64,000 bases of DNA from Azospirillum sp. (GTDB lineage: Bacteria; Pseudomonadota; Alphaproteobacteria; Azospirillales; Azospirillaceae): the NCBI RefSeq assembly GCF_035628975.1, contig NZ_DASPIS010000032.1, positions 12,987 to 76,986 on the forward strand. The letters are read 5' to 3'. The translations under genes were made by a program, and so were the position numbers. Below are positions 9,804 to 30,658 of the stretch, in pieces; position 1 is the first letter of the stretch; each line of letters opens with the position of its first letter. The notes beneath the pieces were generated by a model that ran no database searches, had not been told where the DNA came from, and was given only the letters and a program-made list of their open reading frames with translations.

Positions 9804-9812
9804 GGGGGATGC

Positions 9813-12294: not shown

Positions 12295-12331
12295 GTCGCC
12301 GGTCCTTCTTCCAGGGGCAAGGCAGCGCAGG

Positions 12332-13414: not shown

Positions 13415-13990
13415 GCCCAGCCATATGGTCGTGACCTGCTGCAATCCAAGCCTTTGCGGATCGGCACCTGATGGGGCGCAAGGCTTCGATCCCTCTTCGG
13501 ACCCGGTGGCGCTTCGGCAGAATCGTTTAAGGCGGGTAAAGATATTTCCAGGATGAAATAAACAATATCCTTCATGAAATCGAATTCATGCTTGCCATTC
13601 TCCAACAGTGGTAAGTAATAAAAATAATGTGCGGAAGTCCTTCGATTAGGGGCCCCTAATGCCGTGTCGGGTGCAAGAACGACCATGAACGACATTGTTG
13701 CAAAACGGGCGGACTGCCGGCACCGGCAGTGTGGGACTCGAACCGTACGCATTCTCATCGATCGGATAACCAGCCTCGGCAAGGTGGACCCGCGCATGGG
13801 CGCCTGACCCTCGCACCGGACCGGCGCATGCGGCGATGCAATGCCCAATTGCGCATGCACAGTCCGGCTCGGCCGTTCGACCGCGCTCCCTTCGGTGGTC
13901 GTCGGCCCCCTTGTCGGATCTCCCGTCCCGGGGGATGGCTGTAGGCAATATTCGGGTGTCGATGTGGACATGAATTACCGGGAGACGGCA

Positions 13991-15571
13991 ATGTCGCCGC
14001 TGATGCAGGCGACGGCAGGCTTCGATCCGTCTCTGATTCTGGAAATGGCCCAGAAAATTCGCGAGCCACTTTACATCGTCAGGAACCGTGAAGGCCGTCT
14101 GGGAGCTTCGACCCGGCCGCCGGATTTCGCGGCGGAGCGGCTGGAGCCCGTCGCGACCCTGCCGCCGCTTTATCCCGAATGGCTGGGTGATCGCAGTTTC
14201 CAGGAAGCTCACGGCTGCCGCTTTGCCTATGTGGCGGGGGAGATGGCGCGGGGCATCGCCACGCCGGCGATGGCGGTCGCCGCCGCCCGTGCCGGGCTGC
14301 TCGGCTTCTACGGCAGTGCCGGGCTTTCGCCGCAGCGGGTGCAGGAGGGCATCGCCGAAATCCGCGCGGCGCTTTGTCCGCAGGCGCCGGGCTGGGGCGC
14401 CAACCTGATCCACAGTCCCAACGATCCCGCCCTGGAAACCGCGGTCTGCCGCCTGTTCCAGCAGCAGGGGGTGCGGCGCGTCTCGGCATCGGCCTTCATG
14501 GCGCTGACCCCGTCGGTGGTGGAACTGTCCGCCAAGGGGCTGCGCCGCGATCCGGCCACCGGTGCGGTCCGCCGTCTGACCCACATCTTCGCCAAAGTGT
14601 CGCGCGCCGAGGTGGCCCGCCAGTTCATGGCGCCGGCCCCGCAGCGCATGCTGGCCGATCTGGTGGCGCAGGGCATCCTCACCGCCGAAGAAGCCGAACT
14701 TGCCGCCGCCATCCCGGTGGCGGAGGACATCACGGTGGAGGCGGATTCCGGCGGCCACACCGACAATCGTCCGCTGACCGTCCTGTTTCCGATCATCCAG
14801 CGCCTGCGCGACGAGATGGTCGCCGCCCATGGCTATGACCGCAACATCCGCGTCGGTGCCGCCGGCGGGCTGGGGACACCCGCAGCGCTGGCCGGCGCCT
14901 TCGCCATGGGGGCGGCCTATGTCGTCGTCGGATCGGTGAACCAGTCGGCGGCGGAGGCTGGGCAGCCGCTGTCGGTCCGCCGCATGCTGGCCGACCTGTC
15001 CAGCACCGACGTGACGATGGCGCCCGCCGCCGACATGTTCGAGATGGGCGTGAGGGTCCAGGTGATGAAGCGGGGCACCATGTTCCCCTTCCGCGCCCAA
15101 CGCCTGTACGAGCTGTACTGCCGCCATTCCGGCCTGGACGACCTTCCCGCCGCCGAGCGCGCGACCCTCGAAAAGGATGTCTTCCAGGCGCCGCTGGAGG
15201 AGATCTGGCGCCAGACCCGTGAGCATTTCGCCGTCCGCGACCCGGCGGAACTGGCGCGTGCCGAGGCCGATCCCCGCCACCGCATGGCCCTGGTCTTCCG
15301 CTGGTACCTGTTCAACGCCGCCCGCTGGCCGACGCAGGACGACGGCGCGCGCCGCCATGACTTCCAGGTCTGGTGCGGCCCGGCGATGGGCGCCTTCAAC
15401 GACTGGGTGAAGGGCAGCTTCCTGGAAGCGGCGGACAAACGCACGGTCGAACAGATCGCCCGCAACCTGCTGGAAGGGGCCGCCGTGGTGACCCGCGCCC
15501 AGCAGATGCGCACGGCGGGCTTGGCCGTACCGGCCGCGGCCTTCACCTGGGTGCCGCGCCGGCTCGCCTGA
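13991..15571 (+). CDS. pfaD: PfaD/Pfa1-type enoyl-ACP reductase of PUFA-synthase-like PKS
   Basis: LPPLYPEWLGDRSF, AGEMARGIA, EADSGGHTDNRP, RVGAAGGLGTP, GSVNQ, APAADMFEMGV, FQVWCGPAMGAFN; RBS ggag before ATG 13991 (alternative 13970). Confidence 0.92.
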   Translation: MSPLMQATAGFDPSLILEMAQKIREPLYIVRNREGRLGASTRPPDFAAERLEPVATLPPLYPEWLGDRSFQEAHGCRFAYVAGEMARGIATPAMAVAAARAGLLGFYGSAGLSPQRVQEGIAEIRAALCPQAPGWGANLIHSPNDPALETAVCRLFQQQGVRRVSASAFMALTPSVVELSAKGLRRDPATGAVRRLTHIFAKVSRAEVARQFMAPAPQRMLADLVAQGILTAEEAELAAAIPVAEDITVEADSGGHTDNRPLTVLFPIIQRLRDEMVAAHGYDRNIRVGAAGGLGTPAALAGAFAMGAAYVVVGSVNQSAAEAGQPLSVRRMLADLSSTDVTMAPAADMFEMGVRVQVMKRGTMFPFRAQRLYELYCRHSGLDDLPAAERATLEKDVFQAPLEEIWRQTREHFAVRDPAELARAEADPRHRMALVFRWYLFNAARWPTQDDGARRHDFQVWCGPAMGAFNDWVKGSFLEAADKRTVEQIARNLLEGAAVVTRAQQMRTAGLAVPAAAFTWVPRRLA

Positions 15572-15627
15572 TCCAGCCTGACAAGCGCGCTTCCGCCCCA
15601 ATCCCCCTCCGAACATCCGAGACCGCC

Positions 15628-18600
15628 TTGAAGAACCGCCACCCCATCGCGATCGTCGGCATCGGCGCCATGTTTCCGGGTTCCGGCACCACGCACGGCT
15701 TCTGGCGCGACATCCTCGCCGGCCGGGATTGCATCGGCGACGTGCCCGCCACCCATTGGCTGGTTGAGGATTTCTACGACCCCGATCCCTCGGCGCGGGA
15801 CAAGACCTATTGCCGCCGCGGCGCCTTCCTGCCCCCGGCCACGCTGGACCCGCTGGAGTTCGGCATCCCGCCCCAGGCGCTGAGCGCCACCGACACCGCG
15901 CAGCTGTTGGCGCTGATCGTCGCCAAGGAGACGCTGGACGAGGCCTGCCGCACGCAGTTCCGCGACATCGACCGCAGCCGGACCAGCATCGTGCTGGGCG
16001 TGGCGTCCGCCACCGAACTGGTGGGGACCATGGGGGCGCGGCTGCAGCGGCCGGTCTGGGTCAAGGCGCTCCGCGAGGCCGGCCTGCCGGAGGACGAGGT
16101 GACGGCCATCTGCGACCGCATCTCGTCGCAGTATGTGGAATGGCAGGAAAGCAGCTTCCCCGGCGTGCTGGGCAATGTGGTGGCGGGGCGCATCGCCAAC
16201 CGGCTCGACCTGGGCGGCACCAACTGCGTGGTGGATGCCGCCTGCGCCAGTTCGCTGTCGGCTCTGCTGATGGCGATGAACGAGTTGGAGCTGGGCCATT
16301 CCGACATGGTCATCAGCGGCGGTGTCGATGCCCTGAACGACATCTTCATGTACATGTGCTTCAGCAAGACGCCGGCCCTGTCCAAGAGCGGCGATTGCCG
16401 TCCCTTCTCCGATGCGTCGGACGGCACGATCGTCGGCGAGGGGCTGGGCCTGTTCGCCCTGCGCCGGCTGGAGGATGCCGAGCGCGACGGCAACCGCATC
16501 TATGCCGTCATCCGGGGGATCGGGTCCTCGTCCGACGGCCGCGCCACCAGCGTCTATGCCCCGCGGCCGGAGGGGCAGGCGGTGGCCTTGCGCCGGGCCT
16601 ATGCCGATGCCGGCCATGACCCGCGCAGCGTCGAACTGGTCGAGGCCCACGGCACCGGCACCCGCGCCGGCGACCTCGCCGAATTCACCGCGCTGACCCA
16701 GGTGTTCCGGGAAGCCGATGCGGAGGCCGGGGCCTGGTGCGCCATCGGATCGATCAAGTCGCAGATCGGCCACACCAAGGCCGCAGCCGGCTCCGCCGGG
16801 CTGCTGAAGGCGGCGCTGTCGTTGCATCAGAAGGTCCTGCCGCCCACCATCAAGGTCGACCGGCCCGACAGCCGCCTGAAGCTGGAGAGCAGCCCCTTCT
16901 ACCTGAACACCCGTGCCCGGCCCTGGGTGAAGGCGGACGGCCCCCGCCGCGCCTCCGTCAGTTCCTTCGGCTTCGGCGGCAGCAACTATCACGTGGCGCT
17001 GGAGGAGTATACCGGACCGCAAGCCGCGTCCCGCCTGTGGGCGGGCGGCGCGCTGCTGCTGCTGGGGGCCGCCGATGCGCGGTCCCTGGCCGAGGCGGCG
17101 CGTGCCCTTGGTGCCCGCGTGGAGAAGGATGGGCTGGAGGCGGTCGCCCGCGACAGCCAGATCGCCTTCGATCCGCGGTCGCGCCACCGCCTCGCCATCG
17201 TCGCCGCCGATGCCCGGCAGTTCGAGGCGCGCTTGGCGACCGCGCTCAAGCAGACGGGCGCCTTCAGCGCTCCCGGAATCCATCTGGCAGTGGGCGAGGG
17301 TAAGGGCAAGGGTGGGGGCGGCAAAACCGCCTTCCTGTTCCCCGGCCAAGGCAGCCAGTATGTGAGCATGGGCGCCGATCTGGCCGTGGCCTTCGACGAG
17401 GCCCGCGTGGTCTGGGACGGGCAAGCCGCTCTGCCGACCGTGCCGGGCCAGTCGCCGCTGCATCGCGTGGTCTTCCCGCCGCCCGCCTTCACCGGCGAGG
17501 AGGGGGAGGCGCAGGAAGCGGTCCTCACCCGCATGATCCACGCCCAGCCCAGCATCGGCACGGCGAGCCTCGCCCTGCTGGCGGTGCTGGAGCGTGCCGG
17601 AATCCGCGCCGATGCCGTCGCCGGCCACTCCTTCGGCGAGATCACGGCGCTGTGTGCCGCCGGTGTCCTCGACCGCGACACCGCGCTGTCCCTGGCCGCC
17701 GAACGTGCCCGCTGCATGGAAGAGGCCGCATCCGGCAGCGACGGCGCCATGATCGCGGTGGCCGCCGGGCGCGAGCGGGTGGAGCCGCTTCTGCAGGGTC
17801 TGGACGTGGTGCTGGCCAACGACAACGGGCCGGAACAGGTGGTCCTGTCCGGCGCCCGCGCTGCTGTAGAGAATGCCGCGACCCGGCTGGAGGCCGAGGG
17901 GCTGCGGGTGGTCCGGCTGAAGGTCGCCAGCGCCTTCCATTCGCCGGTGGTCGCGCAGGCCGCCGAAACCTTCCGCAGCGTCCTCGACGGCACGGCGTTC
18001 GGGTCCTTCGCGATCCCGGTCTACGCCAACCTCACCGCCGCACCCTACGCCGATGCCGAGGTCCGCGACCTGCTGGCCGGGCAGATCGCCGGCACGGTCC
18101 GCTTCCGCGAGACGGTCGAGGCGCTTTATGCCGACGGTGTCCGGACCTTCGTGGAGGTCGGGCCGGGTTCGGTGCTGAACGGTCTGGTGGCGCAATGCCT
18201 GGGTGGCCGTCCGCATCTGGCGGTTGCCCTGGACCGGCGCGGGGCCCACGGCGTCGCCTCCCTGCTGGACGGCTTGGGCGCGCTGGCGGTCCATGGCGTG
18301 CCCGTCGATTTCCAAGCGCTGTGGACCGGCTTCGCCGAAGAGCGCAAGCCCAAGCCCGCATCGCCCGCCGCCGTCCGCGTCAGCGGCGCCAATTTCGGCA
18401 AGATCTACCCGCCGCCGGGCGGTGCTGCCGCGCTGCCGAAGCCCAATCCGCCCCGCCCCGCCATTGCGCCGCCCGCGCCGACTCCCCTGGCACCGGCTCA
18501 ATCCGCCCCGGTTTACTCCCCGTCCATTGAAGAAGCTCCGATCATGGTCACGAACTCTCCCGCTCCGCAGCCGGCGCCCATCCCCGTCGCGACCGCGCCG

Positions 18601-21012
18601 GTTGAGACGATCTATCACCATGTCGCCGACGCCCATGCCGCCTTCCAGCGCGCCATCGCCGAAAGCCATCAGGCTTTCCTGGCGGTCGCCGGTCAGGCGA
18701 TCCAGAGCCTGAGCGGCGTGCCGGCATGGCCGGCGGCAGCACCCGCCGTCCCGGTGGCGCCGACCATGGCGCCGAGCATGCCGGCCCCCGCTCCCATGCC
18801 GGCCTTGGCGCCGGTGCCGCCGGCTGCGCCGGTCATGCCGGTGCAGAGCCAGACGTCCGTTGCCGCAGCGCCGCAGCATGTCGCTCCGGCCAGGGTGGAA
18901 CCTGTTCAGGCCAAGCCCCATCCGGTGACGGCACCCGCCGCCCCCGTTGCCGCTCCGCCCAAGGTCAACGCCCGGGACATCGTGCTGGCGGTGATCGCCG
19001 ACAAGACCGGCTACCCGGTGGACATGCTGACGGCGGACATGGAACTGGAAGCCGGTCTCGGCATCGACTCCATCAAGCAGGTGGAGATTTTCTCGACCTT
19101 GCAGGACCGCATTCCGGCGCTGGGCAATGCCGACATGCGCGAACTGAACGCGCTGAAGACCATCGGTCAGATCCTCGCCATGGCCGACAGCCGCAGCGGC
19201 GGCGCCGCCGCCCCCACGGCTGCCCCGGCGCCCGTGGTGGCGGCAGCGGTTCCGGCGGCCAAGCCGACGGCTCCGTCCGTCGATGTCGGCGCGCTGTTCA
19301 TGGGGCTGGTGGCGGAGAAGACCGGCTATCCCGTCGAGATGCTGAGCCCGGAGATGGAGCTTGAGGCTGGTCTCGGCATCGATTCCATCAAGCAGGTCGA
19401 GATCTTCTCGGCCCTGGTCGACCGCCTGCCGGAACTGGCCTCGGTCGAGATGCGCGAATTGACCGCGCTCAAGACCGTCGGCGCGGTGATCGACCGCATC
19501 AAGGGCGACGCCCCGGCTGCCCAGCAAACGCCGGCCCAGATCCAGACCCAGGCCCAGACCCAGGCTCTGCCCGCGTTATCGGCAGGCACCATCCGCACCT
19601 GCTCCGTCTTGGAAGAGCGGAAAGCGGGCGGTGCCGACATGTTGCGCGGCCTGACCAGCATCGCCGTCGTGCCGGATTCGTCCGGTGTCGCCGCCGAACT
19701 GGTGGCTCTGCTGTCGGCCAAGGGCATCGCCGCCCGGATCGCCGAGCTGCCGGGCGGGCAGGACGACGCGGTGCTGTTCCTGGCCGGGCTCGACGGGGCC
19801 GATGCCGCCTCGGCCGCCGATCTGCACTGGCGCGCGCTTGCCGCCGCCAAGGCCGCCGACGCCCGCTTCGGCAAGACCGGCGGCGCCTTTGTCACTGTCG
19901 AGAAGGGTGGTGAGGCTTGGCTGGGGCTTGGCGGTCTCGTCCTGACCGCGGCGCATGAATGGCCGGCGGCGCGGGTCAAGGCCATCGAACTGGAGCCGGG
20001 AAGCCGCTCCGCCGCCGACCTCGCCCGTGCTCTCGCCGCGGAGATTGCCACCGGCGACGGCGATGCGGAGGTCCGCCTTGCCGCAGACGGCAAGCGTCTG
20101 GTGCGGACCCTGCGCGAGGGAGAGGCGGCCGACGGCCCGCTGCCGCTGGAGCAGGGCGCGGTGATCGTCGTCTCCGGCGGTGCCCGCGGCGTGACCGCCG
20201 TCGCGTTGGAGCAGCTGTCCCGCCGCATCCGCCCGACCCTGGTCATCCTGGGCCGCAGCGATCCCGGCGCGGCGCCGGTCCTGCCGGGCATCGCCGAGGA
20301 TGCCGACGAAACCGCGGTCCGCCGGGCGGTGATCGCCGGTCCCGGCGCCGGCAGGCAGCCGCGCGAGATCGAGGCGATGGTCAAGGCCATCCTGTCCGCC
20401 AACGAGGCGCGCGCCACGTTGCGCCGGTTGGAAGCGGCCGGTGCCCGCGTCCGCTACTGCCGCGCCGACGTGCGCGACGCGGCGTCGGTCGCGCAGGCGC
20501 TGGCGGCGGTCCGTGCCGAGGCCGGGCCGATTTCCGGCATCGTGCATGGGGCCGGCGTGCTGGCCGACAAGCGCATCGGCGACAAGACGCGCGACCAGTT
20601 CGACGCCGTCTTCGGCACCAAGGTGGAGGGAATCGCCAATCTGCTGGCCGCCACCCGCGAGGATCCGTTGCGCGTCATCTGCCTGTTCTCTTCCATCGCC
20701 TCGCTGCACGGCAATGCCGGGCAGTGCGACTACGCCATGGCCAACGGCGTGCTGAACGCCGTGGCGCGGGCCGAGGCGGCACGCCGGCCGGACTGCACGG
20801 TCAAGGCCATCGCCTGGGGGCCGTGGGACGGCGGCATGGTCGGACCTGCGTTGAAACAGCATTTCCGCCGCATGTCCGTCGATCTGATCGCGCCGGCGGA
20901 CGGCGCCGACTTCATGCTGCGCGAACTGGCGCAGCCGCCGGCCGGCGACGCGGTCGTCTCCTGCATCGGGCGTTCGGCCGCCGCGGGTACCGCCATCGGA
21001 CGGGCGGCATGA
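15628..21012 (+). CDS. pfaA: PfaA/Pfa2-type iterative PKS: KS-MAT-ACP-ACP-KR
   Basis: KS DAACASS / EAHGTGT / GHTKAAAG; MAT GHSFGE and AFHS; two ACPs with KTGYP..LEAGLGIDSIK; KR SGGARGV...DYAMAN; probable TTG start. Confidence 0.92.
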   Translation: MKNRHPIAIVGIGAMFPGSGTTHGFWRDILAGRDCIGDVPATHWLVEDFYDPDPSARDKTYCRRGAFLPPATLDPLEFGIPPQALSATDTAQLLALIVAKETLDEACRTQFRDIDRSRTSIVLGVASATELVGTMGARLQRPVWVKALREAGLPEDEVTAICDRISSQYVEWQESSFPGVLGNVVAGRIANRLDLGGTNCVVDAACASSLSALLMAMNELELGHSDMVISGGVDALNDIFMYMCFSKTPALSKSGDCRPFSDASDGTIVGEGLGLFALRRLEDAERDGNRIYAVIRGIGSSSDGRATSVYAPRPEGQAVALRRAYADAGHDPRSVELVEAHGTGTRAGDLAEFTALTQVFREADAEAGAWCAIGSIKSQIGHTKAAAGSAGLLKAALSLHQKVLPPTIKVDRPDSRLKLESSPFYLNTRARPWVKADGPRRASVSSFGFGGSNYHVALEEYTGPQAASRLWAGGALLLLGAADARSLAEAARALGARVEKDGLEAVARDSQIAFDPRSRHRLAIVAADARQFEARLATALKQTGAFSAPGIHLAVGEGKGKGGGGKTAFLFPGQGSQYVSMGADLAVAFDEARVVWDGQAALPTVPGQSPLHRVVFPPPAFTGEEGEAQEAVLTRMIHAQPSIGTASLALLAVLERAGIRADAVAGHSFGEITALCAAGVLDRDTALSLAAERARCMEEAASGSDGAMIAVAAGRERVEPLLQGLDVVLANDNGPEQVVLSGARAAVENAATRLEAEGLRVVRLKVASAFHSPVVAQAAETFRSVLDGTAFGSFAIPVYANLTAAPYADAEVRDLLAGQIAGTVRFRETVEALYADGVRTFVEVGPGSVLNGLVAQCLGGRPHLAVALDRRGAHGVASLLDGLGALAVHGVPVDFQALWTGFAEERKPKPASPAAVRVSGANFGKIYPPPGGAAALPKPNPPRPAIAPPAPTPLAPAQSAPVYSPSIEEAPIMVTNSPAPQPAPIPVATAPVETIYHHVADAHAAFQRAIAESHQAFLAVAGQAIQSLSGVPAWPAAAPAVPVAPTMAPSMPAPAPMPALAPVPPAAPVMPVQSQTSVAAAPQHVAPARVEPVQAKPHPVTAPAAPVAAPPKVNARDIVLAVIADKTGYPVDMLTADMELEAGLGIDSIKQVEIFSTLQDRIPALGNADMRELNALKTIGQILAMADSRSGGAAAPTAAPAPVVAAAVPAAKPTAPSVDVGALFMGLVAEKTGYPVEMLSPEMELEAGLGIDSIKQVEIFSALVDRLPELASVEMRELTALKTVGAVIDRIKGDAPAAQQTPAQIQTQAQTQALPALSAGTIRTCSVLEERKAGGADMLRGLTSIAVVPDSSGVAAELVALLSAKGIAARIAELPGGQDDAVLFLAGLDGADAASAADLHWRALAAAKAADARFGKTGGAFVTVEKGGEAWLGLGGLVLTAAHEWPAARVKAIELEPGSRSAADLARALAAEIATGDGDAEVRLAADGKRLVRTLREGEAADGPLPLEQGAVIVVSGGARGVTAVALEQLSRRIRPTLVILGRSDPGAAPVLPGIAEDADETAVRRAVIAGPGAGRQPREIEAMVKAILSANEARATLRRLEAAGARVRYCRADVRDAASVAQALAAVRAEAGPISGIVHGAGVLADKRIGDKTRDQFDAVFGTKVEGIANLLAATREDPLRVICLFSSIASLHGNAGQCDYAMANGVLNAVARAEAARRPDCTVKAIAWGPWDGGMVGPALKQHFRRMSVDLIAPADGADFMLRELAQPPAGDAVVSCIGRSAAAGTAIGRAA

Positions 21013-24000
21013 GCCGGTTCCCGCCCATCGCCGTCATCGGCCACGGCTGCGTGCTGCCGGGCGCCCTCAGCCCGGCGGAGCTCTGGCAGGCCGTCGTCGA
21101 GGGGCGGGATCTGCTGCGCCCGGTGCCGCCGGGCGTCTGGCGCGTCGATACCGCAAAGGCGCTGTCGCCCGAGGCGCCCGAGCGTTCCGCGACCGACAAG
21201 GGCGGCTATGTGCAGGGCTTCGACGCCATCTTCGATCCCAACGGCTTCGCCTGCCCGGCGGAGGAACTGGCCGGGCTCGATCCGCTGGTGCTCTGGCTGG
21301 TCCATAGCGGGCGCGAGGCGCTGCGCGAGGCGGGGCTGAACATCGCGCCGGGCGGGCGCTGCGGTTTGATCGCCGGCAACCTGTCCTATCCCACCGCCAG
21401 CCTCAGCGCCTTTGCCGAATCGGTCTGGCTGGACCGGGAGGGGCCGAAGCCCGCCAACCGCTTCTCGTCGGGCCTGCCGGCGCAGCTGGCCGCCCGTGCC
21501 CTCGGCCTGCAGGGGCCGGCCTTCTGCCTGGATGCCGCCTGTGCCTCCTCGCTCTATGCCGTCAAGCTGGCCTGCGACCAGCTGCATGACGGGACCGCCG
21601 ACCTGATGATCGCGGCGGGCGTCAACCGCGGCGACGACCTGTTCCTTCATATGGGCTTCACCGCGCTGAACGCCCTCAGCCCCACCGGCCGCAGCCGGCC
21701 GTTCCACCGCGAAGCCGATGGGCTGATCCCGGCCGAGGGGGCTGCCTGTGTGGTGCTGAAGCGGATGGACGACGCGGTGCGCGACGGAGACCGCATCCTC
21801 GGCGTCATCCGCGGCATCGGCCTGTCGAACGACGGGCGCAGCCGAGGCTTCCTTGTTCCCGACGCCGGAGGCCAGGAGCGCGCCATGGCCGACGCCTATG
21901 CCCAGGCGGGTTTCGCGCCGGAAGCGGTATCGCTGGTGGAATGCCACGCCACCGGAACGGCGCTTGGCGACGCCACCGAGATCGCCAGCATGGGCCGCAT
22001 CTTCGCCGGCTTGCGGGATGTGCCGATCGGGTCGCTGAAGTCCAACCTGGGCCACCTGATCGCCGCCGCCGGTCTGGCCGGCATGGTCAAGGTGATCCAG
22101 GCGATGGCGGCCGGCATCCGCCCGCCGACCCTGCATGCCGACGCCGCACCGCTGGACGGCATCGGCGCCTCGCCCTTCCGCCTGCTGGACCGGGCGGAGC
22201 CGTGGGAGGTGGATGGGCCGCGCCGCGCCGGAATCAGCGCCTTCGGCTTCGGCGGCAACAACGCGCATCTGGTGCTGGAGGAGTGGCACCCCGCCACCGT
22301 GTCCGTTCCGGTTGTCGCTCCCCCGCCGCCGTTGCGTGTGGCGGTCGTCGGCCTTTCCGTCGCCACCGCCGCCGATGACTTCGCCGCGGCCTTGGCCGCA
22401 CCTCCTTCGGGAGACGGCCCGCGCGTCCTGGACAGCATCACGCTGGACCTCGCCACTATCCGCGTCCCGCCTGCCGACCTGCAGCATGCCCTGCCGCAGC
22501 AGCTTCTGGCGATGAAGGCGGTGGCCCGCGCCGTCGCCGACGCCCCGGCCTTGCCGGCAGCCACCACCGGCGTGCTGATGGGCATGGGCTGCGACGCCCA
22601 GGTGGCGCGGCGCGGCCTGGGCGTGCGGCTTGCCGACCTGTGCGGCCCGGATGCCAGTGTCGATCTCGGTCCCCCGCTGAACGCGGCCGGCGTCATCGGC
22701 ACCATGCCCAACATCGTCGCCAACCGCTTCAACGCCCAGTTCGACTGGCGCGGCCCCAGCTATTCGGTATCGGCGGAGGAGTTGTCGGGGCTTGCCGGGT
22801 TGCGCATCGCCGCCCGCGCCCTGGTGACGGGCGAGCTGGACGCGGCGGTCGTCGGCGCGGTCGATCTGTCCTGCGAGCCGGTGCACCGCAGCGCGCTCGC
22901 CGCCCTGCGCCCCGACCTCGCTACCCCCGGTGACGCCGCCGTCGTTCTGGTGCTGCGCCGGGTGGAGTGCGCCGAGGCCGCCGGCGAACCGATCCACGCC
23001 ATCCTCGACCTGTCCTCCGCCACCGATTCCGCCGAAGCGGAGTTCACCATCGCCGGACCGCAAGGGGCGAGTCCCGTCACCAGCCGCTTCGGCCATGCCC
23101 ATGCCGCGTCCGGCCTGCTGCATGTGGCCGCCGCCGTGGTCGCCTGCAGTGGCCGCATGAAGCCCGGAGACGGCGCTGCCCAACCCTGGCTGGATGCCGG
23201 TCGCCTGCGCGCCCGCGTGAGCGTCGTGGCTCTGGGCGGGGCGACCGACGGGCTTCTGGTCGAAAGCGGCGATGTCTCGGAGCCGGCCGTACCGCCGCCG
23301 GACACGCGCCTGCATTGGTTCGCCGCCGCCAGCCGGGCGGAGCTGTGCGCGCGCATCCGGCGCGGCGAGGATGGCGGGCAGGGGCCGGTGCGGCTGGCCT
23401 TCGCCTGTCCGGCCGGCAAGGAGGCCGACACCCTGGCGCGCGCGCTGGCCCTTGCCGAGGGGCGCGAGGCCACCGCCGACGGTATCCAGTTCCGCGAGCG
23501 ACCGCTCGGCGGCCGGCTGGCCCTGGTCTTCACCGGGGCGGCGGCGGCTTACGAGGGAATGGGGCGCGAGCTTTTCCTGTCCATCCCCGATGTCGGCCGG
23601 AGCGTGACCGCGCGCTTCCCTATCCTCGCCCATGCGGCGGAGCGGCTGTACGGATCGGCGGAACCGCTCGACGCGATGGCGCAGCTGCAGACCTGCGCCC
23701 TGATCTGCCAGACCCATGCGGAGGTCAGCCGCAGCGTGCTCGGCCTGCGGCCTGCGGCTGTGATGGGCCTGTCCTCCGGCGAGACCAACGCGCTGTTCGC
23801 CGCGGGCATCTGGTCGGACATGGGCGCCATGTTCGCGGAAATCGACGCATCGGGCATCTATGGCCGCCATCTGACCGGCGACTGCCTTGCAGCCGCGCGA
23901 GTCTGGGGGCAGGCGGATGCCGCCGACTGGCGCAACTGGCGCCTCCTGGCCCCGATCGAGGAGGTGGAGGCGGCGCTGGCCGGCCTGCCCCGCGTGTCGA

Positions 24001-27000
24001 TCACCATCGTCAATGCGCCGCAGGACTGCGTGATCGGTGGCGACGCCGATTCCTGCCGTCAGGCGATCGCGCGCATCGGGGCGCACCGCGCCTTGCCGCT
24101 CGGCCAGGACATGGTGGTGCATTGCGCAGAGATGGCGCCCTGCGCCCCGGTCTGGCGCCGGATTCACAGCCGCGAGACGACACCGCCCGAGTGCATCGCC
24201 GTCTATGCCAATGCCTTCGGCGAAGCCTACCGGCCGTCGGAGGAGCTGTGCGCCGAGGCGCTGACCCGTCAGGCGATGGAAAAGGTGGACTTTCCCCGCA
24301 CGATCCGCCGCGCCCATGACGATGGGGTGCGGATCTTCGTCGAGCATGGTCCGCGCAATGCCCTGACCCGCTCCATCGCCGCCACGCTGGCCGACCGCGA
24401 GCATCTGGCGGTCAGCCTGGACCATCCCGGCCGTGCGCCGCTGGAACAGCTGGCCCATGTGGCGGCCGAGCTGTTCGCCGCCGGTCAGGAGCCCGCCATG
24501 GCCGAGGTCGCCCGCCGCCTGGAGCGCCGGACCGCCCCGCCGCCGGCCCAGCCCCTGACCTTCGCCGCCCATGCCGCGCCCGTCGCGGTCGCTCTCGGAC
24601 AGCCGATGCCCCCCGCACCGCCCCTGCCGCCGGTCGCCGACCTGCCGCCGCCCGATCTGGCCGCCCGCCGCCCGCTGGACGAGGCGCCGGAGCCTGAGCC
24701 TGTGATCGCCGATGTGCATCGTCCGGCCGCGCCCGGCGTTTCCACACGGGCGCCGGTTCCGCCGTCCGACAGCCCGATCGCCCGCATCCTCGCCCGTACG
24801 GCGGAGCTTCACACCGGCTATCTGAAAACCGCGTCGGACCTGCACCGGAGCTATCTGCAAGGTTTCGGGGTGGCGACAGTGACCGCTCTCCCTCTCCCCC
24901 CCGCTCCCCCTCTCCCCCCCGCTCACGCGCAAACTTCGTTTGCGCTGACGCGACAGGCGGACCTTTGGTCCGCTGAAAGCGGGGAGAGGGTCGGGGTGAG
25001 GGGGATGCATGGGGTGGATTCTCGGGATACGGCCGCCGCGCTTCCCCCTCACCCTAACCCTCTCCCCGGGGGGGAGAGGGCATCGTCACCCCCGGGCCGT
25101 CCGCTCTGGGACCGCGCCCAGCTGGAAATCCTGGCGTCGGGCAAGGTATCCGACATCTTTGGTCCGCTCTTCGCGCAGCAGGACGGCTACGCGCGTCAGG
25201 TCCGTATGCCGGAGCCGCCGCTGCTGCTGGTGGACCGCGTCATTTCCATCACCGGCGAACCCGGCAGCATGGGGCTTGGCTCCATCGTCACCGAGACGGA
25301 TGTCACGGCCGACAGCTGGTATCTGCACAACGACCGCATGCCGGTGGGGCTCGCCATCGAATCCGGACAGGCCGACCTGCTGCTGATCTCCTGGCTGGGC
25401 GCCGATTTCCGCAACAGGGGCGAGCGCGTCTACCGCCTGCTGGGCTGCGAGATGACCTACCATGAGGGTGGCCTGCCGCGGGTGGGCGACACGCTGCGCT
25501 ACGACATCCACATCGACGGCCATGCCCGCATGGGCGAGGTCGGGCTGTTCTTCTTCCATTACGATTGCCGCATCGGTGATCGGCTGGTGCTGTCGGTCCG
25601 CAACGGGCAGGCCGGATTCTTCACCGACCAGGAATTGGCCAACTCCGGCGGCGTGCTGTGGAGCGCCGAGGAGGACCGGCCCAGGGACGGCGCGCGCCTG
25701 GACCCGCTGCCCTGTCCGTCGCGCCACCGCGCCTTCACCGCCGAACAGCTCGACCTCTGGACCGCCGGCCGGGCCTTCGCCTGTTTCGGCGAGGGGTTCG
25801 AACTGGCCGGCAGTCACCAGCGCACCCCGGCGATCCCGCAGGGGCGCATGCGCCTGATCGACAGCGTGACCGCCTTCCAACCGCAGGGCGGCCCCTGGGG
25901 ACGGGGGTATCTGCGGGCGGAAAGCCATGTCCCGGCCGACGCCTGGTTCTATGCCGGCCACTTCAAGAACGATCCCTGCATGCCCGGCACGCTGATGGCC
26001 GAGGGGGCGGTGCAGGCGGTCGCAACCTTCATGGCAGCCGGCGGCTTCACCATCGGACGCGATTCCTGGCGGTTCGAGCCGGTGCCGGACGAGCCCGCCC
26101 GCTTCGTCTGCCGCGGACAGGTGGTCCCGGACGCCGCCCATCATCTTGTCTACGAAGTCTTCGTCGAGGAGATCGAGGACGGCCCGACGCCCATCGTCCG
26201 CGCCGCCCTGCTGTGCAGCGCCGATGGCTTCAAGGTCTTCCATTGCCGCGCCTTCGCCGTGCGGATGGTGCCCGACTGGCCGCTCGGCCATGGGCGTCAT
26301 GCCCTGCCGGCGCTGGCGGAGGCGCCGCGCATCGTCGGCACCCGCGGCGACGTGCGCGGCGATTACGAGGCGCTGCTGGCCTGCGCCTGGGGGGCACCGT
26401 CCCTGGCCTTCGGCAGCATGTATGCCCGCTTCGATGCCGGGCGGGTGCCGCGCCTGCCGGGGCTGCCCTATCACTTCATGTCCAGCGTGGTCTCGGTGAA
26501 CTGCCCGGCCGGGGAGCCGACCGTGGGCGGCACGCTCCTCGTCGATTACGAGGTGAAACCGGAGGCGTGGTACTTCGCCCGGAACGCGGCGCCGGTGATG
26601 CCCTTCTGCGTGCTGATGGAGGTGCTGCTGCAGCCCTGCGGCTGGCTGGCCTCCTACATGGGCTTCGCGCTCGCCTCCACCGAGGATCTGGCGATCCGCA
26701 ACTTGGACGGCGACGCCGCCCGCGTGCTGGCCGAAGTGACGCCCGCCGACGCCCGCGTCCGTACCGAGGCGACGCTGACCCGCTTCTCCCGCGCCGGCGG
26801 CATCACCCTGATCGCCTTCAAGGTCCGGGCCTGGGTCGACGACCGGCCGCTGATGGAGCTGGAAACCTCCTTCGGCTTCTTCGCGTCCGCCGCGCTGGCG
26901 AAGCAGAACGGCCTGCCGCCCTTGCCGGCCGATGATGCGCGGGGGATTCCGCCCGCCATGCCCGTCGTGGAGCCGCGCGGCGCGAAACTGGCGGACGGAA

Positions 27001-29477
27001 TGCTGAGCATGGTGGACGAGGTCACCGGCTGGTGGCCTGAGGGCGGCGCCAGCGGCCTGGGACTGGTGCGCGGCCGGCAGGTGGTCGATCCGGAATCCTG
27101 GTACTTCAAGGCCCATTTCTTCCAGGATCCGGTTCAGCCCGGTTCGCTGGGGGTCGAGGCGCTGCTGCAATTGCTGGAGCGCGCCATGATCCTGGCGGGG
27201 CTGGACAGCGAATTGGACTCGCCGCGCTTCGAAGGGGCCGCTCTGGACCAGACGCTACGCTGGAAGTATCGCGGTCAGGTGGTCCCCACCAACCGGACCG
27301 TCACCACGGAAATCGAGATTGTGCGGATCGAGCGCGACGAGCGCGGCATTCTGGCGGTTGCCCGCGGCAGCCTGTGGGCCGACGATCTGCGCATCTACGA
27401 GGTTGACGGGCTGGCGGCGCGTCTGGTGCCCGGCGGTGGCGGCAATGGCGGCATCCGCCTGGATTTGGACAACGCCCCCTGGCTTGGCGACCATCGCCCG
27501 ACCCATACGGCCCCCGCGGTTCCCCTGACCTGTCTTGCCGACATCATGGCGGCGGCGGTTTCGGGCGAATGCGTCGTCTCCCTTGAGGATGTCCGGGTTC
27601 AGCGCTGGGCGACGGTGCCGGTCACGCTGGTTCCGGAGGTGGAGCCTGACGGCCGCGTGACCTTGCGGGATGGCGGCAACATGCTGGCGACCGGCCGGGT
27701 GATCCGGGCGGACGAGTGGCCGGCGCCGCCGCGGCCGTTCGATCCGCTGGAGGATGCCCGGCCGTCGCCATGCCCCTATGCCGCCGCGGAGCTGTTCCAC
27801 GGCCCGGCCTTCCAGATCCTGAGCGGGCTGCGCACCGGCTCCGGCGGCGCGTCCGCCGATCTGGACGCGGTCAAGGCTGCGCGGGTGCCGGGGCTGATCG
27901 GTCCTGCGCTGCTGGATGCCGGTCTCCATGCCACCCCCCGCCATGCCCCCGAACTCTGGTGGGGGGAACAGGCGGGGGGGATGCTCGCCTATCCCAGCGC
28001 CATCGAGCGGCTGAGCCTTTTCGGCCCGACGCCCTGCGACGGCATGGTCCGCATCGAGGTGCGTGCGCTTCCCCTGGACGCCCAAGGGCGCGCCCGGTCG
28101 CGCCTGCAGTGGATTGCCGAGGGCAGGGTCTGGGCCGAGATGGACCTCGCCGACGTGCTGTTCCCCAAGGGCGCGCTCGGCAAGGCTCCCGCCCTGGCGC
28201 GGCAGGCGTTCCTGCGCGACCGCAAGGCGGCGCCCGGCGTGCGCCTGTCGCGGGCGGAGAGCGGTACGAGCCGCCTCAGCGCCCGCGAGGTCGCGGCGAG
28301 CAACTGGCTGCCCGGAACCCTGGAAAGCCTCTATGGCGTGTCGGGCAACCCCTCCGACATGGCCCACTCCATCGCGGCGAAGGAGCATGCGGCGGCACAG
28401 CTCGGCGTCCATCCGGGGGTGGTGGCGGTCGAGGGCGATGTCGCCCGCTGCCCCGGCGCGCCGCTCAACCCGGTTCCGCTGTCGGTCACGCGCGACGGTG
28501 CCGACTGGGTGGTGACGGGCACGCTCCCCGCCGCTCCCGACATCTTGCCGCTGCGGACCTTCTGGCGCGCCCATCTGGGGACCGGCGACTGGCCGGTGGA
28601 GGACCTGTTCCTGGCGCTGGCCGCCGAATTCGTCGGTCAGGTGCGCGTGGCGGAGCCGAACGGGCTCGCCCGCATCCGCGACCGCGGCGCGCTGTTCCTC
28701 GGAAACCATCAGGTGGCGGTGGAATCGCTGACCTTCACGCTGGCGGCCGCCGCCCTGACCGGCAGGCCGATCCTGACCGTCGCCAAGGCGGAGCATCGCA
28801 ACACGTGGCTTGGCAGCCTGCTGGCCTTGTCCGGCAGCGATTCTGGGCTTCGCCTGCCGCAGATGATGCTGCTGTTCGACCGCGAAGATCCGGCGGCCAT
28901 GCTGGGGCTGATGGAACAGGCGCGCGACGCGGTGAGGCGCGATGGCGTGTCGATCATGGTGCATGCGGAGGGCACGCGGTCGCTGTCCTGCCGGACCCCG
29001 GTGTCCCGGCTGTCCGGGGTGTTCCTGGATCTGGCGGCGAGGCTGGAGGTTCCCATCGTGCCGGTCCGCTTCGCCGGCGCCCTGCCGGTCGATCCCGCGC
29101 CGGAGCGGCTGGAGTTCCCGCTGGGCTTCGCTCGTCAGGACATCCATATCGGTCGCCCGCTGTGGCCGGAGGAGTTGGCGAGCCTGCCCCTGGCGGAGCG
29201 CAAGAGGGCCGTCCTCGACGCCATCAACGGGACTGGCCCATCGCTGGCCGGCGAGGGTCCCAACGAGCCGCGCCCGGACTTCGAAGCGGCGGCGATGGCC
29301 ATGGCGGCAACGCGCGGACTCAGCCTGCCCCGCGCGGCGACGCTCCAGGCGGTGTTGAACGCGATCCCAAGCGATCGTCCGCTCGCCCGTCTCGCCCGCA
29401 GCATCGCGGCGGGGGAGGGAGCGGAGGAGGTCGACCCGTGGCTGTCCGCCCTGGCCGGCTGGTTTCGAACTCAGTAG
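21009..29477 (+). CDS. pfaC: Pfa3 (PfaB/C-like) PKS: KS-CLF-AT-(DH'-DH)x2-PKS-type DH-acyltransferase (AGPAT-like)
   Basis: KS DAACASS / ECHATGT / KSNLGH; CLF lacking Cys (SAEELS); AT GLSSG; FabA-type HFKNDPCMPG and HFFQDPVQPG; PKS-DH WLGDH..P, LFHGPAFQ, LLDAGLH; LPLAT NHQVAVES and EGTRS; ATGA overlap with the pfaA stop. Confidence 0.92.
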   Translation: MSRFPPIAVIGHGCVLPGALSPAELWQAVVEGRDLLRPVPPGVWRVDTAKALSPEAPERSATDKGGYVQGFDAIFDPNGFACPAEELAGLDPLVLWLVHSGREALREAGLNIAPGGRCGLIAGNLSYPTASLSAFAESVWLDREGPKPANRFSSGLPAQLAARALGLQGPAFCLDAACASSLYAVKLACDQLHDGTADLMIAAGVNRGDDLFLHMGFTALNALSPTGRSRPFHREADGLIPAEGAACVVLKRMDDAVRDGDRILGVIRGIGLSNDGRSRGFLVPDAGGQERAMADAYAQAGFAPEAVSLVECHATGTALGDATEIASMGRIFAGLRDVPIGSLKSNLGHLIAAAGLAGMVKVIQAMAAGIRPPTLHADAAPLDGIGASPFRLLDRAEPWEVDGPRRAGISAFGFGGNNAHLVLEEWHPATVSVPVVAPPPPLRVAVVGLSVATAADDFAAALAAPPSGDGPRVLDSITLDLATIRVPPADLQHALPQQLLAMKAVARAVADAPALPAATTGVLMGMGCDAQVARRGLGVRLADLCGPDASVDLGPPLNAAGVIGTMPNIVANRFNAQFDWRGPSYSVSAEELSGLAGLRIAARALVTGELDAAVVGAVDLSCEPVHRSALAALRPDLATPGDAAVVLVLRRVECAEAAGEPIHAILDLSSATDSAEAEFTIAGPQGASPVTSRFGHAHAASGLLHVAAAVVACSGRMKPGDGAAQPWLDAGRLRARVSVVALGGATDGLLVESGDVSEPAVPPPDTRLHWFAAASRAELCARIRRGEDGGQGPVRLAFACPAGKEADTLARALALAEGREATADGIQFRERPLGGRLALVFTGAAAAYEGMGRELFLSIPDVGRSVTARFPILAHAAERLYGSAEPLDAMAQLQTCALICQTHAEVSRSVLGLRPAAVMGLSSGETNALFAAGIWSDMGAMFAEIDASGIYGRHLTGDCLAAARVWGQADAADWRNWRLLAPIEEVEAALAGLPRVSITIVNAPQDCVIGGDADSCRQAIARIGAHRALPLGQDMVVHCAEMAPCAPVWRRIHSRETTPPECIAVYANAFGEAYRPSEELCAEALTRQAMEKVDFPRTIRRAHDDGVRIFVEHGPRNALTRSIAATLADREHLAVSLDHPGRAPLEQLAHVAAELFAAGQEPAMAEVARRLERRTAPPPAQPLTFAAHAAPVAVALGQPMPPAPPLPPVADLPPPDLAARRPLDEAPEPEPVIADVHRPAAPGVSTRAPVPPSDSPIARILARTAELHTGYLKTASDLHRSYLQGFGVATVTALPLPPAPPLPPAHAQTSFALTRQADLWSAESGERVGVRGMHGVDSRDTAAALPPHPNPLPGGERASSPPGRPLWDRAQLEILASGKVSDIFGPLFAQQDGYARQVRMPEPPLLLVDRVISITGEPGSMGLGSIVTETDVTADSWYLHNDRMPVGLAIESGQADLLLISWLGADFRNRGERVYRLLGCEMTYHEGGLPRVGDTLRYDIHIDGHARMGEVGLFFFHYDCRIGDRLVLSVRNGQAGFFTDQELANSGGVLWSAEEDRPRDGARLDPLPCPSRHRAFTAEQLDLWTAGRAFACFGEGFELAGSHQRTPAIPQGRMRLIDSVTAFQPQGGPWGRGYLRAESHVPADAWFYAGHFKNDPCMPGTLMAEGAVQAVATFMAAGGFTIGRDSWRFEPVPDEPARFVCRGQVVPDAAHHLVYEVFVEEIEDGPTPIVRAALLCSADGFKVFHCRAFAVRMVPDWPLGHGRHALPALAEAPRIVGTRGDVRGDYEALLACAWGAPSLAFGSMYARFDAGRVPRLPGLPYHFMSSVVSVNCPAGEPTVGGTLLVDYEVKPEAWYFARNAAPVMPFCVLMEVLLQPCGWLASYMGFALASTEDLAIRNLDGDAARVLAEVTPADARVRTEATLTRFSRAGGITLIAFKVRAWVDDRPLMELETSFGFFASAALAKQNGLPPLPADDARGIPPAMPVVEPRGAKLADGMLSMVDEVTGWWPEGGASGLGLVRGRQVVDPESWYFKAHFFQDPVQPGSLGVEALLQLLERAMILAGLDSELDSPRFEGAALDQTLRWKYRGQVVPTNRTVTTEIEIVRIERDERGILAVARGSLWADDLRIYEVDGLAARLVPGGGGNGGIRLDLDNAPWLGDHRPTHTAPAVPLTCLADIMAAAVSGECVVSLEDVRVQRWATVPVTLVPEVEPDGRVTLRDGGNMLATGRVIRADEWPAPPRPFDPLEDARPSPCPYAAAELFHGPAFQILSGLRTGSGGASADLDAVKAARVPGLIGPALLDAGLHATPRHAPELWWGEQAGGMLAYPSAIERLSLFGPTPCDGMVRIEVRALPLDAQGRARSRLQWIAEGRVWAEMDLADVLFPKGALGKAPALARQAFLRDRKAAPGVRLSRAESGTSRLSAREVAASNWLPGTLESLYGVSGNPSDMAHSIAAKEHAAAQLGVHPGVVAVEGDVARCPGAPLNPVPLSVTRDGADWVVTGTLPAAPDILPLRTFWRAHLGTGDWPVEDLFLALAAEFVGQVRVAEPNGLARIRDRGALFLGNHQVAVESLTFTLAAAALTGRPILTVAKAEHRNTWLGSLLALSGSDSGLRLPQMMLLFDREDPAAMLGLMEQARDAVRRDGVSIMVHAEGTRSLSCRTPVSRLSGVFLDLAARLEVPIVPVRFAGALPVDPAPERLEFPLGFARQDIHIGRPLWPEELASLPLAERKRAVLDAINGTGPSLAGEGPNEPRPDFEAAAMAMAATRGLSLPRAATLQAVLNAIPSDRPLARLARSIAAGEGAEEVDPWLSALAGWFRTQ
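24886..25081 (-). repeat. Palindromic repeat copy 2, in frame inside pfa3
   Basis: Reverse complement aligns with 1402-1569; contains gcgcaaacttcgtttgcgc (24927-24945) and cccctcaccctaaccctctcccc..gggagaggg. Confidence 0.85.
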
Positions 29478-30658
29478 ATGGGGATGCCCACGATCATCAG
29501 GCCGAAGACGCCGAGGATGGCGTGGGACACGCTGCTGCCGACCAGCGATCCCTGGCGGGCGAAGATCCAGCCCCAATAGAGGCCGATGGGGAACACCGCC
29601 AGGGCAAGGCCGATCGACACATGCAGGTGGGTGGCGCTGAACAGCATGTTCGACAGGACGATGGCTTCCGCCGTCTTGTATTTGCTGGTCAGGAAAAGCT
29701 GAAAGGATGCCTGGGTGCCGCGGGCGATGGTTTCCTGGATCGGCGTGAAGGCGCAATAGGCGCTGCCGTAGAGAAGGATTTCGCCCAGCGACAGCCCGGT
29801 GGACCGCGCGAAGTCGAACACCGGCTGCCCTTGCAGGGACGGGATCATCGTCACGCCGATCCATTTGAGCGTGACGATCAGCAGGGCGATGGGGATGGAC
29901 AGCACCACGCCTTCCAGCGCGTTGCGCCGCCAGTTCTTCAGGGTGAAGCCATAGGCGCTGGGCGGCCAGGGGCTGGTCTTGACGGTGCGGTACACGCCGA
30001 AGGCGAAGGCGGTCAGAATGGGCAGGCTGATGAGGGAGGTGTCTGGAACCACCTTGCTGAGCGCCGTGGTGACGCCCAACGCGAACATGTAGAAGCAGAG
30101 GCCGACCAGCAGGCGAAAGATGAACTTGCTCATCTCCACGCGGTTCTCGGCCTCGTTCAGCTGACGGCGCAGGGTCTGGACCGTCACCTCGTTGGTGCGG
30201 CGCAGGCGCGCGGCCAGCTCATAGGCCAGATTGATCTTGAGACGCCCATCCACGCCGAGTTGGCGGTCGGGATGCTCCTGCAGGCGGGAGAGCGGGACGG
30301 CGATGACCTCGCTGTCCTCGGCGGCGCGGACGGCGCCGGAGCGCGGGCCGCTGTCGAGCAGCGACACCTCGCCGATGGACTGGCCCGCCGTCAGCAGGGC
30401 GAGGCGATGGCGGACGTCGCTGCCCTCCTCGCGCTTCAGGACCTCGAAGCTGCCGGAGAGAATGAAGAAGAGCGCGTCGCCGGGATCGCCCTCTTCGAAC
30501 AGAAGCTGGCCCTGGGGGATCTTGCGGGGGCCGTCCACGACGGCGGCCAGCTGCCGGATGTTCTCGTCCGAGAAGCCATTCAGAAGAGGCGCGCTCCTCA
30601 GACGCTCGTCGATTTCCAGATGCCGCGCATCCGACGGCGCGCCACCGACAACGTCCAT
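29471..30658 (-). CDS. Cyclic-nucleotide-binding domain fused to a CPBP (CAAX protease/Abi)-family membrane domain
   Basis: LFEEGDPGDALFFILSG...IGEVSLLDSGPRSG; multiple TM segments; QETIARG, FSATH, HAILG. Confidence 0.82.
   Translation of the reverse strand: MDVVGGAPSDARHLEIDERLRSAPLLNGFSDENIRQLAAVVDGPRKIPQGQLLFEEGDPGDALFFILSGSFEVLKREEGSDVRHRLALLTAGQSIGEVSLLDSGPRSGAVRAAEDSEVIAVPLSRLQEHPDRQLGVDGRLKINLAYELAARLRRTNEVTVQTLRRQLNEAENRVEMSKFIFRLLVGLCFYMFALGVTTALSKVVPDTSLISLPILTAFAFGVYRTVKTSPWPPSAYGFTLKNWRRNALEGVVLSIPIALLIVTLKWIGVTMIPSLQGQPVFDFARSTGLSLGEILLYGSAYCAFTPIQETIARGTQASFQLFLTSKYKTAEAIVLSNMLFSATHLHVSIGLALAVFPIGLYWGWIFARQGSLVGSSVSHAILGVFGLMIVGIPIY

Follow-up and report, generated by a model that had tools for sequence, protein, structure and literature searches.

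A gene cluster of Azospirillum, pfa1-pfa2-pfa3, which occupies positions 13991-29477 of a 64,000-nucleotide stretch of contig NZ_DASPIS010000032.1 (the whole of this stretch is hereafter the window), encodes an intact Pfa megasynthase of Type L, a family that is already known and widespread. Judging from the domain content of its products, it appears reasonably probable that the cluster is a functional, iterative synthase whose long unsaturated acyl chain would be passed to a lysophospholipid by a C-terminal acyltransferase domain. The original prediction for this DNA had proposed a likely uncharacterised pathway; the sighting itself is not new, as a syntenic pfa cluster of Azospirillum melinis was shown by Pal et al. 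(2021; PMC8436480), and the product does appear uncharacterised, no known Azospirillum product having been found in the literature search. With the presence of the cluster in Azospirillum already in print, the modest new points are its set of dehydratase (DH) domains, which lacks DH1 and bears DH4, and the neighbouring gene for a cyclic-nucleotide-binding/CPBP fusion protein (cNMP-CPBP).

The cluster consists of three co-directional open reading frames (ORFs) on the forward strand, of 526, 1794 and 2822 codons, whose frames are unbroken. They follow the order originally claimed, namely an enoyl reductase (ER), then ketosynthase (KS), malonyl-acyltransferase (MAT), two acyl carrier proteins (ACP) and ketoreductase (KR), then KS, a chain-length factor (CLF), an acyltransferase (AT), DH domains and a lysophospholipid-acyltransferase-like (LPLAT) end. 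The claimed ATGA coupling can be read directly at 21009-21012, where the pfa2 stop overlaps the pfa3 start, and the catalytic motifs described as intact-looking are all present, most being invariant in a 14-sequence family alignment. The guess of a soil- or plant-associated Rhodospirillales host is borne out as well: the host belongs to the lipoferum group of Azospirillum, since plasmid AZO_p1 of Azospirillum lipoferum 4B matches 13991-29477 at 91.4% identity across 96% of the region, and window and plasmid are collinear over approximately 5534-41357, a few indels excepted.

The first gene of the operon, pfa1 (13991-15571), has a GGAG 6 nt 5' of its ATG at 13991 and encodes a PfaD-family FMN-type enoyl-ACP reductase of 526 aa, with matches to PF21607, PF03060 and TIGR02814 pfaD_fam (611 bits, cutoff 449). 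For pfa2 (15628-21012), which most plausibly starts at TTG 15628, Pfam and TIGR02813 PfaA (1314 bits, cutoff 1010) give a KS1-MAT-ACP-ACP-KR protein of 1794 aa. KS1 (15643-17007) has its active Cys in DAACASS (16234-16254) and His motifs HGTGT and GHT at 16642 and 16768; the MAT (17323-18207) carries GHSFGE (17623-17640); and the KR (20161-20853; PF08659, E=7e-38) shows GGARGVT at 20176 and YAMAN at 20731. The tandem ACP pair (18986-19482), matched by PF00550 in two stretches, has its serines in LGIDS motifs at 19057-19071 and 19372-19386 (residues 1144 and 1249), and the repeat copies cross-match.

Pfam matches, alignments and the overlap with pfa2 together define pfa3 (21009-29477) as encoding a KS2-CLF-AT2-DH2-DH3-DH4-AGPAT protein of 2822 aa. 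KS2 and a Cys-less CLF span 21024-23408, with PF00109 matching two stretches and PF02801 one; the KS motifs are DAACASS (21531-21551), HATGT and NLGH. AT2 (23517-24401) is a PfaB-like acyltransferase (PF00698, E=3e-9) with GLSSGE at 23766-23783, and its S922 is invariant in the family alignment, as are H1651 and H2036 of DH2 and DH3. The latter two domains (25101-27428) are FabA-type dehydratase/isomerase double hot-dogs, matched by PF07977 in 4 stretches (E=1e-87), with their His residues in HFKNDPCMPG at 25959 and HFFQDPVQPG at 27114. DH4 (27441-28448) is of the polyketide synthase (PKS) type, with H2162 in WLGDH, FHGPAF, and D2303/H2307 in LLDAGLH; matches to PF14765 and PF21089 are weak, as is that to the CurH DH (PDB 3kg7, E=3e-4). 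The AGPAT/PlsC-like domain with a C-terminal helical tail (28626-29474) completes the protein.

Shulse and Allen (2011) defined an ER-first order with fused pfaB/C as "Type L" and reported it from Actinobacteria, Deltaproteobacteria and Gammaproteobacteria. The Azospirillum cluster shares with this type the 5' PfaD-type ER, the KS-MAT-tandem ACP-KR subunit, and the fused KS-CLF/AT/two FabA-type DH subunit; a DH1 at the C-terminus of the PfaA-like protein, which also belongs to the type, is lacking from Azospirillum Pfa2. The layout that begins with ER and ends in AGPAT had been read as myxobacterial, and a 2016 review confined the AGPAT domain to myxobacterial Type L clusters. This statement is outdated, because Pfa3 relatives occur in at least 573 species genomes in a scan that took one genome for each GTDB species, and among the fetched loci AGPAT-fused Pfa3 is found in about ten phyla. 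The lineages with fused AGPAT include Acidobacteriota, Caulobacterales (Caulobacteraceae, Phenylobacterium), Rhodocyclaceae, Planctomycetota, Leptospirales, Mycobacterium, Opitutus, Sericytochromatia, Caldilinea and others, and the fetched loci of Streptomyces, Tahibacter and Rhodanobacteraceae have neither DH4 nor AGPAT. The textbook view of this architecture as a myxobacterial one is thus corrected by the present data.

Resemblance to the characterised myxobacterial Pfa1-3 is nonetheless real. The synthetic Pfa3 of Minicystis rosea type (P0027) is collinear with window Pfa3 at 48% identity, including the DH4 His and the NHQVAVES motif, and the arachidonic acid/docosatetraenoic acid-type system of M. 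rosea (Gemperlein et al., 2019; PMC6731297) has the same ER-first order and the same Pfa3 domain order, an aligned DH4 active His, FHGPxF, LLDAxxH and NHQVAVES, and a phosphopantetheinyl transferase (PPTase) gene outside the cluster. It differs in its identity of only 48% and its separate clade in the trees; on the Azospirillum side, Pfa2 is without the DH1 seen in the myxobacterial Pfa2 compared here, that of Sorangium, and has just two ACPs, and there is a cNMP-CPBP neighbour. The docosapentaenoic/docosahexaenoic acid (DPA/DHA)-type cluster of Aetherobacter fasciculatus and the linoleic acid-type cluster of Sorangium cellulosum So ce56 likewise have pfa1-pfa2-pfa3 with a fused AGPAT, but their Pfa2 proteins end in DH1, unlike that of Azospirillum, and Aetherobacter Pfa3 has no DH4 (PMC6731297). 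Identity to an S. cellulosum locus (L002, CP012673) is 57% for Pfa1, 51% for Pfa2 and 47% for Pfa3. That locus also holds, 3' of pfa3 (18784-26311), a stand-alone PlsC-like acyltransferase, two lipoxygenases, an esterase and a P450, which together look like an oxylipin-type extension of the polyunsaturated fatty acid (PUFA) cluster; Azospirillum has no such downstream PlsC-like, lipoxygenase or P450 genes.

The marine gammaproteobacterial PfaABCD(E) systems for eicosapentaenoic acid and DHA (Types A and B) share the PfaA-like KS-MAT-ACPn-KR protein, KS-CLF, two FabA-type DHs and the PfaD ER. They differ in their A-B-C-D order, a separate PfaB, and a PfaA with DH1 and more ACPs; they have neither a fused AGPAT nor DH4, and release is via PfaB or a thioesterase (TE). 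Hybrid systems (zeamine/fabclavine, megapolipeptin, dioxanopeptin; Hgl; Azotobacter Ars) also include PfaA, PfaC and PfaD homologues, but carry nonribosomal peptide synthetase (NRPS)/PKS modules, aminotransferases, thioester reductases, glycosyltransferases or a type III PKS. A scan of ORFs across the 64 kb window yielded none of these hybrid-type genes, no TE and no other tailoring genes. Readings of the zeamine, dioxanopeptin, Hgl or Ars type were set aside, given this lack of a TE, an NRPS, an aminotransferase and a type III PKS; the dxp family reported from an Azospirillum is a different cluster type.

A possible transfer of the cluster from myxobacteria, also part of the original prediction, found no backing in the phylogenies. 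These were neighbour-joining distance trees rather than maximum-likelihood ones, that of the DH2-DH3 region comprising 93 sequences and 776 columns. Pfa3 identity is 76-91% inside Azospirillum and then drops to 43-50% in all other members. In the DH2-DH3 tree, Azospirillum is monophyletic (100/100 bootstraps) and lies within an alphaproteobacterial/metagenomic clade (95-100/100) together with a Rhodospirillales metagenome-assembled genome (MAG), a Hyphomicrobiales MAG, a Rhizobiaceae-group genome, Tepidamorphus, Magnetofaba and metagenome sequences. The Sorangium/M. rosea-type core forms a clade of its own (100/100), with Azospirillum inside it in 0/100 replicates. The KS2-CLF tree again gives the alphaproteobacterial clade, with weaker support (51/100), and places Azospirillum with the myxobacterial core in 0/60. 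The trees therefore point to an alphaproteobacterial lineage of the family as the source of the Azospirillum cluster and do not support a recent myxobacterial transfer. A recent foreign origin was also considered from base composition and dropped, the difference between cluster (GC 0.70-0.74) and flanks (0.66-0.70), in a window of about 70% GC, being uninformative.

The nearest relatives in both trees are uncharacterised alphaproteobacterial/metagenomic Type L systems at 45-51% identity (Rhodospirillales MAG P0116, P0014-P0017, P0024, Magnetofaba, Tepidamorphus and the Rhizobiaceae group). A DH1-less Pfa2 is common to Azospirillum, P0014, the Rhizobiaceae group and Tepidamorphus, and a cNMP-CPBP neighbour is common to Azospirillum, P0015 and P0017. 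Unlike Azospirillum, P0024, P0116, the Rhizobiaceae group and Tepidamorphus have no fused AGPAT, with a separate AGPAT gene in one relative, and several relatives have a PPTase and a resistance-nodulation-division (RND) pump adjoining, these genes coming after the pfa genes in L087 and L088.

The domain order given in the original prediction stands, but its interpretation missed three features, namely the DH1-less Pfa2, the cNMP-CPBP neighbour and a repeat within pfa3. Regarding the first, residues 7-1794 of Pfa2 align to residues 8-1816 of the 2093-residue Sorangium Pfa2, and the unmatched Sorangium remainder (1817-2093) is a PKS-type DH with HPYLADHRVGGHPVVP and LFHGPSFQ. When this DH1 was used in tblastn, the domain was found directly after the KR in about 50 fetched loci, with no match in the window, strain 4B, INR13 or five other loci. 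DH1 is also absent from the Pfa2 of Azospirillum sp. TSH100 (1762 aa) and from the Pfa2 adjacent to P0014 (1844 aa), and the DH1-less state is common to L004, L008, L061, L081 and P0014. A profile hidden Markov model built from 54 DH1 sequences had, in all six frames of the window, a sole match at Pfa3 residues 2149-2379 (E=5e-12).

This match falls in DH4. Window H2162 aligns with the active His2270 of DH4 in the synthetic M. rosea-type Pfa3, the residue mutated by Gemperlein et al. (2019; PMC6731297) to inactivate DH4 of M. rosea Pfa3, and DH4 alters product specificity in that system. In PUFA synthases generally, PKS-type DHs give trans-enoyl intermediates that are saturated by the ER, and FabA-type DHs give cis double bonds (PMC9702510). 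Because of this division of labour and because Pfa2 is without DH1, DH4 most likely carries the PKS-type dehydratase role in Azospirillum. In several actinobacterial loci (L011, L020, L024 and L082, from Actinomycetes, Ilumatobacter and Acidimicrobiales), a DH1-like sequence lies at or beyond the pfa3 3' end and not after the KR, suggesting repeated relocation of the PKS-type DH within the family. The DH1-less variant offers a natural experiment on the role of PKS-type dehydratases in PUFA synthases.

From these domains, a catalytic cycle can be proposed. The MAT would load malonyl units on the two ACPs of Pfa2, the chain would be elongated by KS1 and the KS2/CLF pair, and the KR would reduce each beta-keto group. 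In some cycles, FabA-type DH2 and DH3 would dehydrate and isomerise the intermediate to leave cis double bonds; in others, a PKS-type DH, most likely DH4, would give a trans-2-enoyl intermediate for saturation by the Pfa1 ER. The finished chain would not be released by a thioesterase; the AGPAT-like domain, perhaps together with AT2, would transfer it to a lysophospholipid and so place the product directly in membrane glycerolipids. The ACPs would be activated by a PPTase encoded elsewhere, and the cNMP-CPBP neighbour would probably tie the synthase to a cyclic-nucleotide signal or to envelope functions.

Several observations weigh against such a functional, lipid-acylating synthase. Pfa2 ends about 50 aa past its KR, without the PKS-type DH1 that is present in most relatives, and has only two ACPs. 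The ORFs scanned across the window yielded no ACPS/PPTase domain, and neither a sigma-70-like promoter nor a terminator was recognised in a scan of 13300-14100. The acyltransferase has H-x4-E in place of the canonical H-x4-D, and even in myxobacteria the role of this domain is given only with a "presumably" (PMC6731297). The literature searched contains no report of PUFAs or of a characterised pfa product in Azospirillum. Furthermore, expression was checked over 12000-31900 in four runs of a related organism that were guessed to be RNA. Two of them gave flat coverage of 8-15x, intergenic DNA included, and are therefore probably DNA; the other two gave only short contigs, at a depth of 2.5-11, on pfa1-3. 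The evidence for pfa expression is thus weak.

This lack of clear transcription might suggest a chromid-borne accessory locus, silent or in decay and without present function, as might the patchy distribution of the cluster in the genus: the DH4-AGPAT region occurs only on A. lipoferum 4B p1 out of 72,556 plasmid and chromid records (PLSDB). The Pfa3 entry of A. humicireducens (P0020) is just 1659 aa long, with a real pseudogene as one alternative, and in the INR13 assembly (L006) pfa3 and the cNMP-CPBP gene are split into several frames; these breaks are probably long-read indel errors but could instead be a real pseudogene. However, all three frames of the window are intact (526, 1794 and 2822 codons) and every catalytic residue is kept. 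When compared with orthologues of Azospirillum sp. TSH100 and of a more distant Azospirillum-like contig, the ratio of non-synonymous to synonymous substitution rates (dN/dS) is 0.17 for pfa1, 0.20 for pfa2 and 0.19-0.22 for pfa3. The whole synthase is under purifying selection, because every domain has a dN/dS of 0.08-0.32, at dS of 0.35-0.77, including DH4 (0.23) and the acyltransferase (0.21). With values of about 0.2 across the domains, at dS of 0.44-0.62, a silent or decaying locus is highly improbable.

The repeat in pfa3 bears on this same alternative. It is a dispersed palindromic repeat (24960-25085, forward strand) that is translated in frame within the Pro/Ala-rich AT2-DH2 linker of Pfa3; it has the arms GGGGAGAGGGTCGGGGTGAGGGGG and CCCCCTCACCCTAACCCTCTCCCC and a terminal hairpin, and the linker includes the residues GERVGVRGMHGVDSRDTAAALPPHPNPLPGGERA. 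A second copy lies at 1414-1496 of the window. The predicted fold has an energy of -83.9 kcal/mol (z = -6.1), and the site shows a net gain of 150 nt relative to A. lipoferum 4B. TSH100 has the repeat in pfa3, 4B has part of it, and the more distant SRR15204650 contig lacks it. It matches 26 Azospirillum plasmid records, and the replicons of A. brasilense, A. argentinense, A. oryzae and TSH58 match this region of the window via the repeat element only. The presence of such an element inside a gene could be taken as a sign of decay, but the insertion is in frame and falls in a variable linker.

A second alternative concerns the product. The synthase could be active and yet make no classical PUFA, giving instead small amounts of a mono- or di-unsaturated, hydroxylated or very-long-chain acyl group for a specialised envelope or cyst lipid. 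The missing DH1 and the two ACPs of Pfa2 would fit this, as would the wide variation of Type L products, the sole PUFA of Sorangium being linoleic acid, and the non-PUFA lipids made by many Pfa-like types; moreover, the presence or inactivation of DH4 shifts product spectra (PMC6731297). On the other hand, the DH2-DH3 pair is the most constrained part of Pfa3, with a dN/dS of 0.11, and because both domains also keep their catalytic His, formation of cis double bonds is argued for; other DH1-less relatives likewise keep the DH2-DH3-DH4 set. As for a cyst lipid, A. brasilense forms cysts, and the A. brasilense-group plasmids in PLSDB are without the cluster, so that encystment probably does not depend on it. 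A non-classical product is, on this balance, unlikely, and a long unsaturated chain remains our preferred reading.

The acceptor of that chain depends on the C-terminal domain. It scores 32.5 bits against PF01553 (cutoff 23) and 31.7 bits against TIGR00530 AGP_acyltrn, far under the cutoff of 103. NHQVAVE at 28704, which contains the H-x4-E, is invariant in 32 of 32 aligned members, myxobacterial ones included, and the EGTR (28968) and PIVPV (29052) motifs are likewise invariant in 32 sequences. Searched by sequence against the PDB, the AGPAT region had no match. An AlphaFold (AF2) model of residues 2500-2822 has a mean confidence (pLDDT) of 88.9, and Foldseek matched it at probability 1.0 to squash glycerol-3-phosphate acyltransferase (GPAT; 1k30), mycobacterial PatA and human GPAT1 and at 0.97 to LpxM, with template-modelling (TM) scores of about 0.4. 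On this model, the domain has a glycerolipid-type acyltransferase fold, and the fold does not identify the acceptor.

The chain might be transferred not to lysophosphatidic acid but, for example, to glycerol-3-phosphate, a lyso-aminolipid or another lipid, with possible export via cNMP-CPBP and RND pumps. The top folds are GPAT, PatA and LpxM, with no PlsC structure among them, and the low TM score, the TIGR00530 shortfall and the H-x4-E motif lean the same way; RND or major facilitator superfamily (MFS) transporters also stand beside related pfa clusters and cNMP-CPBP genes. Against this, the domain is orthologous to the myxobacterial AGPAT, and myxobacterial PUFAs are found in cellular lipids, and we regard another acceptor as quite unlikely. 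In a relative without the fused domain, a stand-alone PlsC-like gene lies directly 5' of pfa1 and ends 4 nt inside it, and this arrangement supports a tight coupling of synthase and acyltransferase.

The gene 3' of the cluster, on the reverse strand at 29471-30658, encodes a 395-aa fusion of a cyclic-nucleotide-binding domain (PF00027) with a CPBP/Rce1-like membrane domain (PF02517). It is convergent with pfa3, whose last 7 nt it overlaps, and adjoins pfa3 in every Azospirillum locus, the outer flanks differing. An orthologue lies 3' of pfa3 on the P0015 contig; on the P0017 contig, a gene of 49% identity sits upstream of pfa1 and is divergent from it; and on another contig two tandem copies precede pfa1-3. 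The family is small, with 70 members at E<=1e-20, and includes members at 62%, 41% and 34% identity that lie away from pfa genes, two of them adjoining RND efflux genes. Strict linkage was therefore rejected, and because of these members cNMP-CPBP is a recurrent, non-obligate partner of pfa clusters, with pfa adjacency presumed in two of the supporting cases (P0019, P0098); its conserved position makes it a probable accessory cluster member. No link of such a protein to PUFA synthases was found in the literature searched, and the recurrent neighbour is a new lead on the regulation or envelope connection of these synthases.

Some further observations concern the same gene family. In L087, L089, L091 and L092, cNMP-CPBP loci lie beside pfa clusters or beside RND/MFS efflux genes, and there may be a connection among pfa, cNMP-CPBP and efflux. 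The DH1-less pfa cluster of P0014 is flanked by DUF5692 genes (L086, 638-1429 and 17839-19488), and a DUF5692 gene is also found near a distant cNMP-CPBP member (L090, 12929-13678).

Taken together, these features could mark a distinct working variant, in which DH1 has been lost, DH4 does all PKS-type dehydrations, and the synthase is coupled to a cNMP-gated CPBP protein and perhaps to RND/MFS export. We put this forward as a tentative and rather doubtful proposal; if true, the cluster would be a signal-controlled membrane-lipid remodelling module making a lipid never reported from Azospirillum. Azospirillum species are among the most widely used plant-growth-promoting bacteria, and to our knowledge standard descriptions of their lipids list no polyunsaturated or synthase-made secondary lipids. 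Since the synthase is intact and selectively maintained, one part of the genus, the group of A. lipoferum, A. melinis and A. largimobile, is probably able to produce a Pfa-type lipid under conditions not yet sampled. Such a lipid could bear on stress tolerance or root colonisation.

Upstream of pfa1, the intergenic region 13445-13990, read directly from the sequence, is the presumed promoter/regulatory region and is shared with a divergent beta-lactamase-family gene. It contains an AT-rich island (13540-13640) inside this 70% GC genome, and 240 nt of it (13674-13913) are swapped for 28 nt in strain 4B. No Rfam element was found over 12000-32000, and a tRNA scan of the whole window gave no match, though a tRNA-like string, GGGACTCGAACC, occurs near 13745.

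Finally, some neighbouring genes should be noted. The block 7382-10335, which is missing from the otherwise collinear 4B plasmid, comprises three genes, for a histidine kinase (7543-8307), a KaiC-like double ATPase (8304-9803) and a response regulator (9804-10220). It was considered as an insertion sequence element and rejected in view of this content; the block is a strain-specific KaiC-type signalling module. On the 3' side of the cluster, after LysR and DUF2391 genes, a cytochrome c oxidase set (33253-42133) includes COX2 with a cytochrome c domain, COX1, a Caa3_CtaG assembly factor and dihaem cytochromes c; these genes are ordinary neighbours that are kept in strain 4B. In addition, the window holds two RND systems, at 40538-45041 and 51614-55982.

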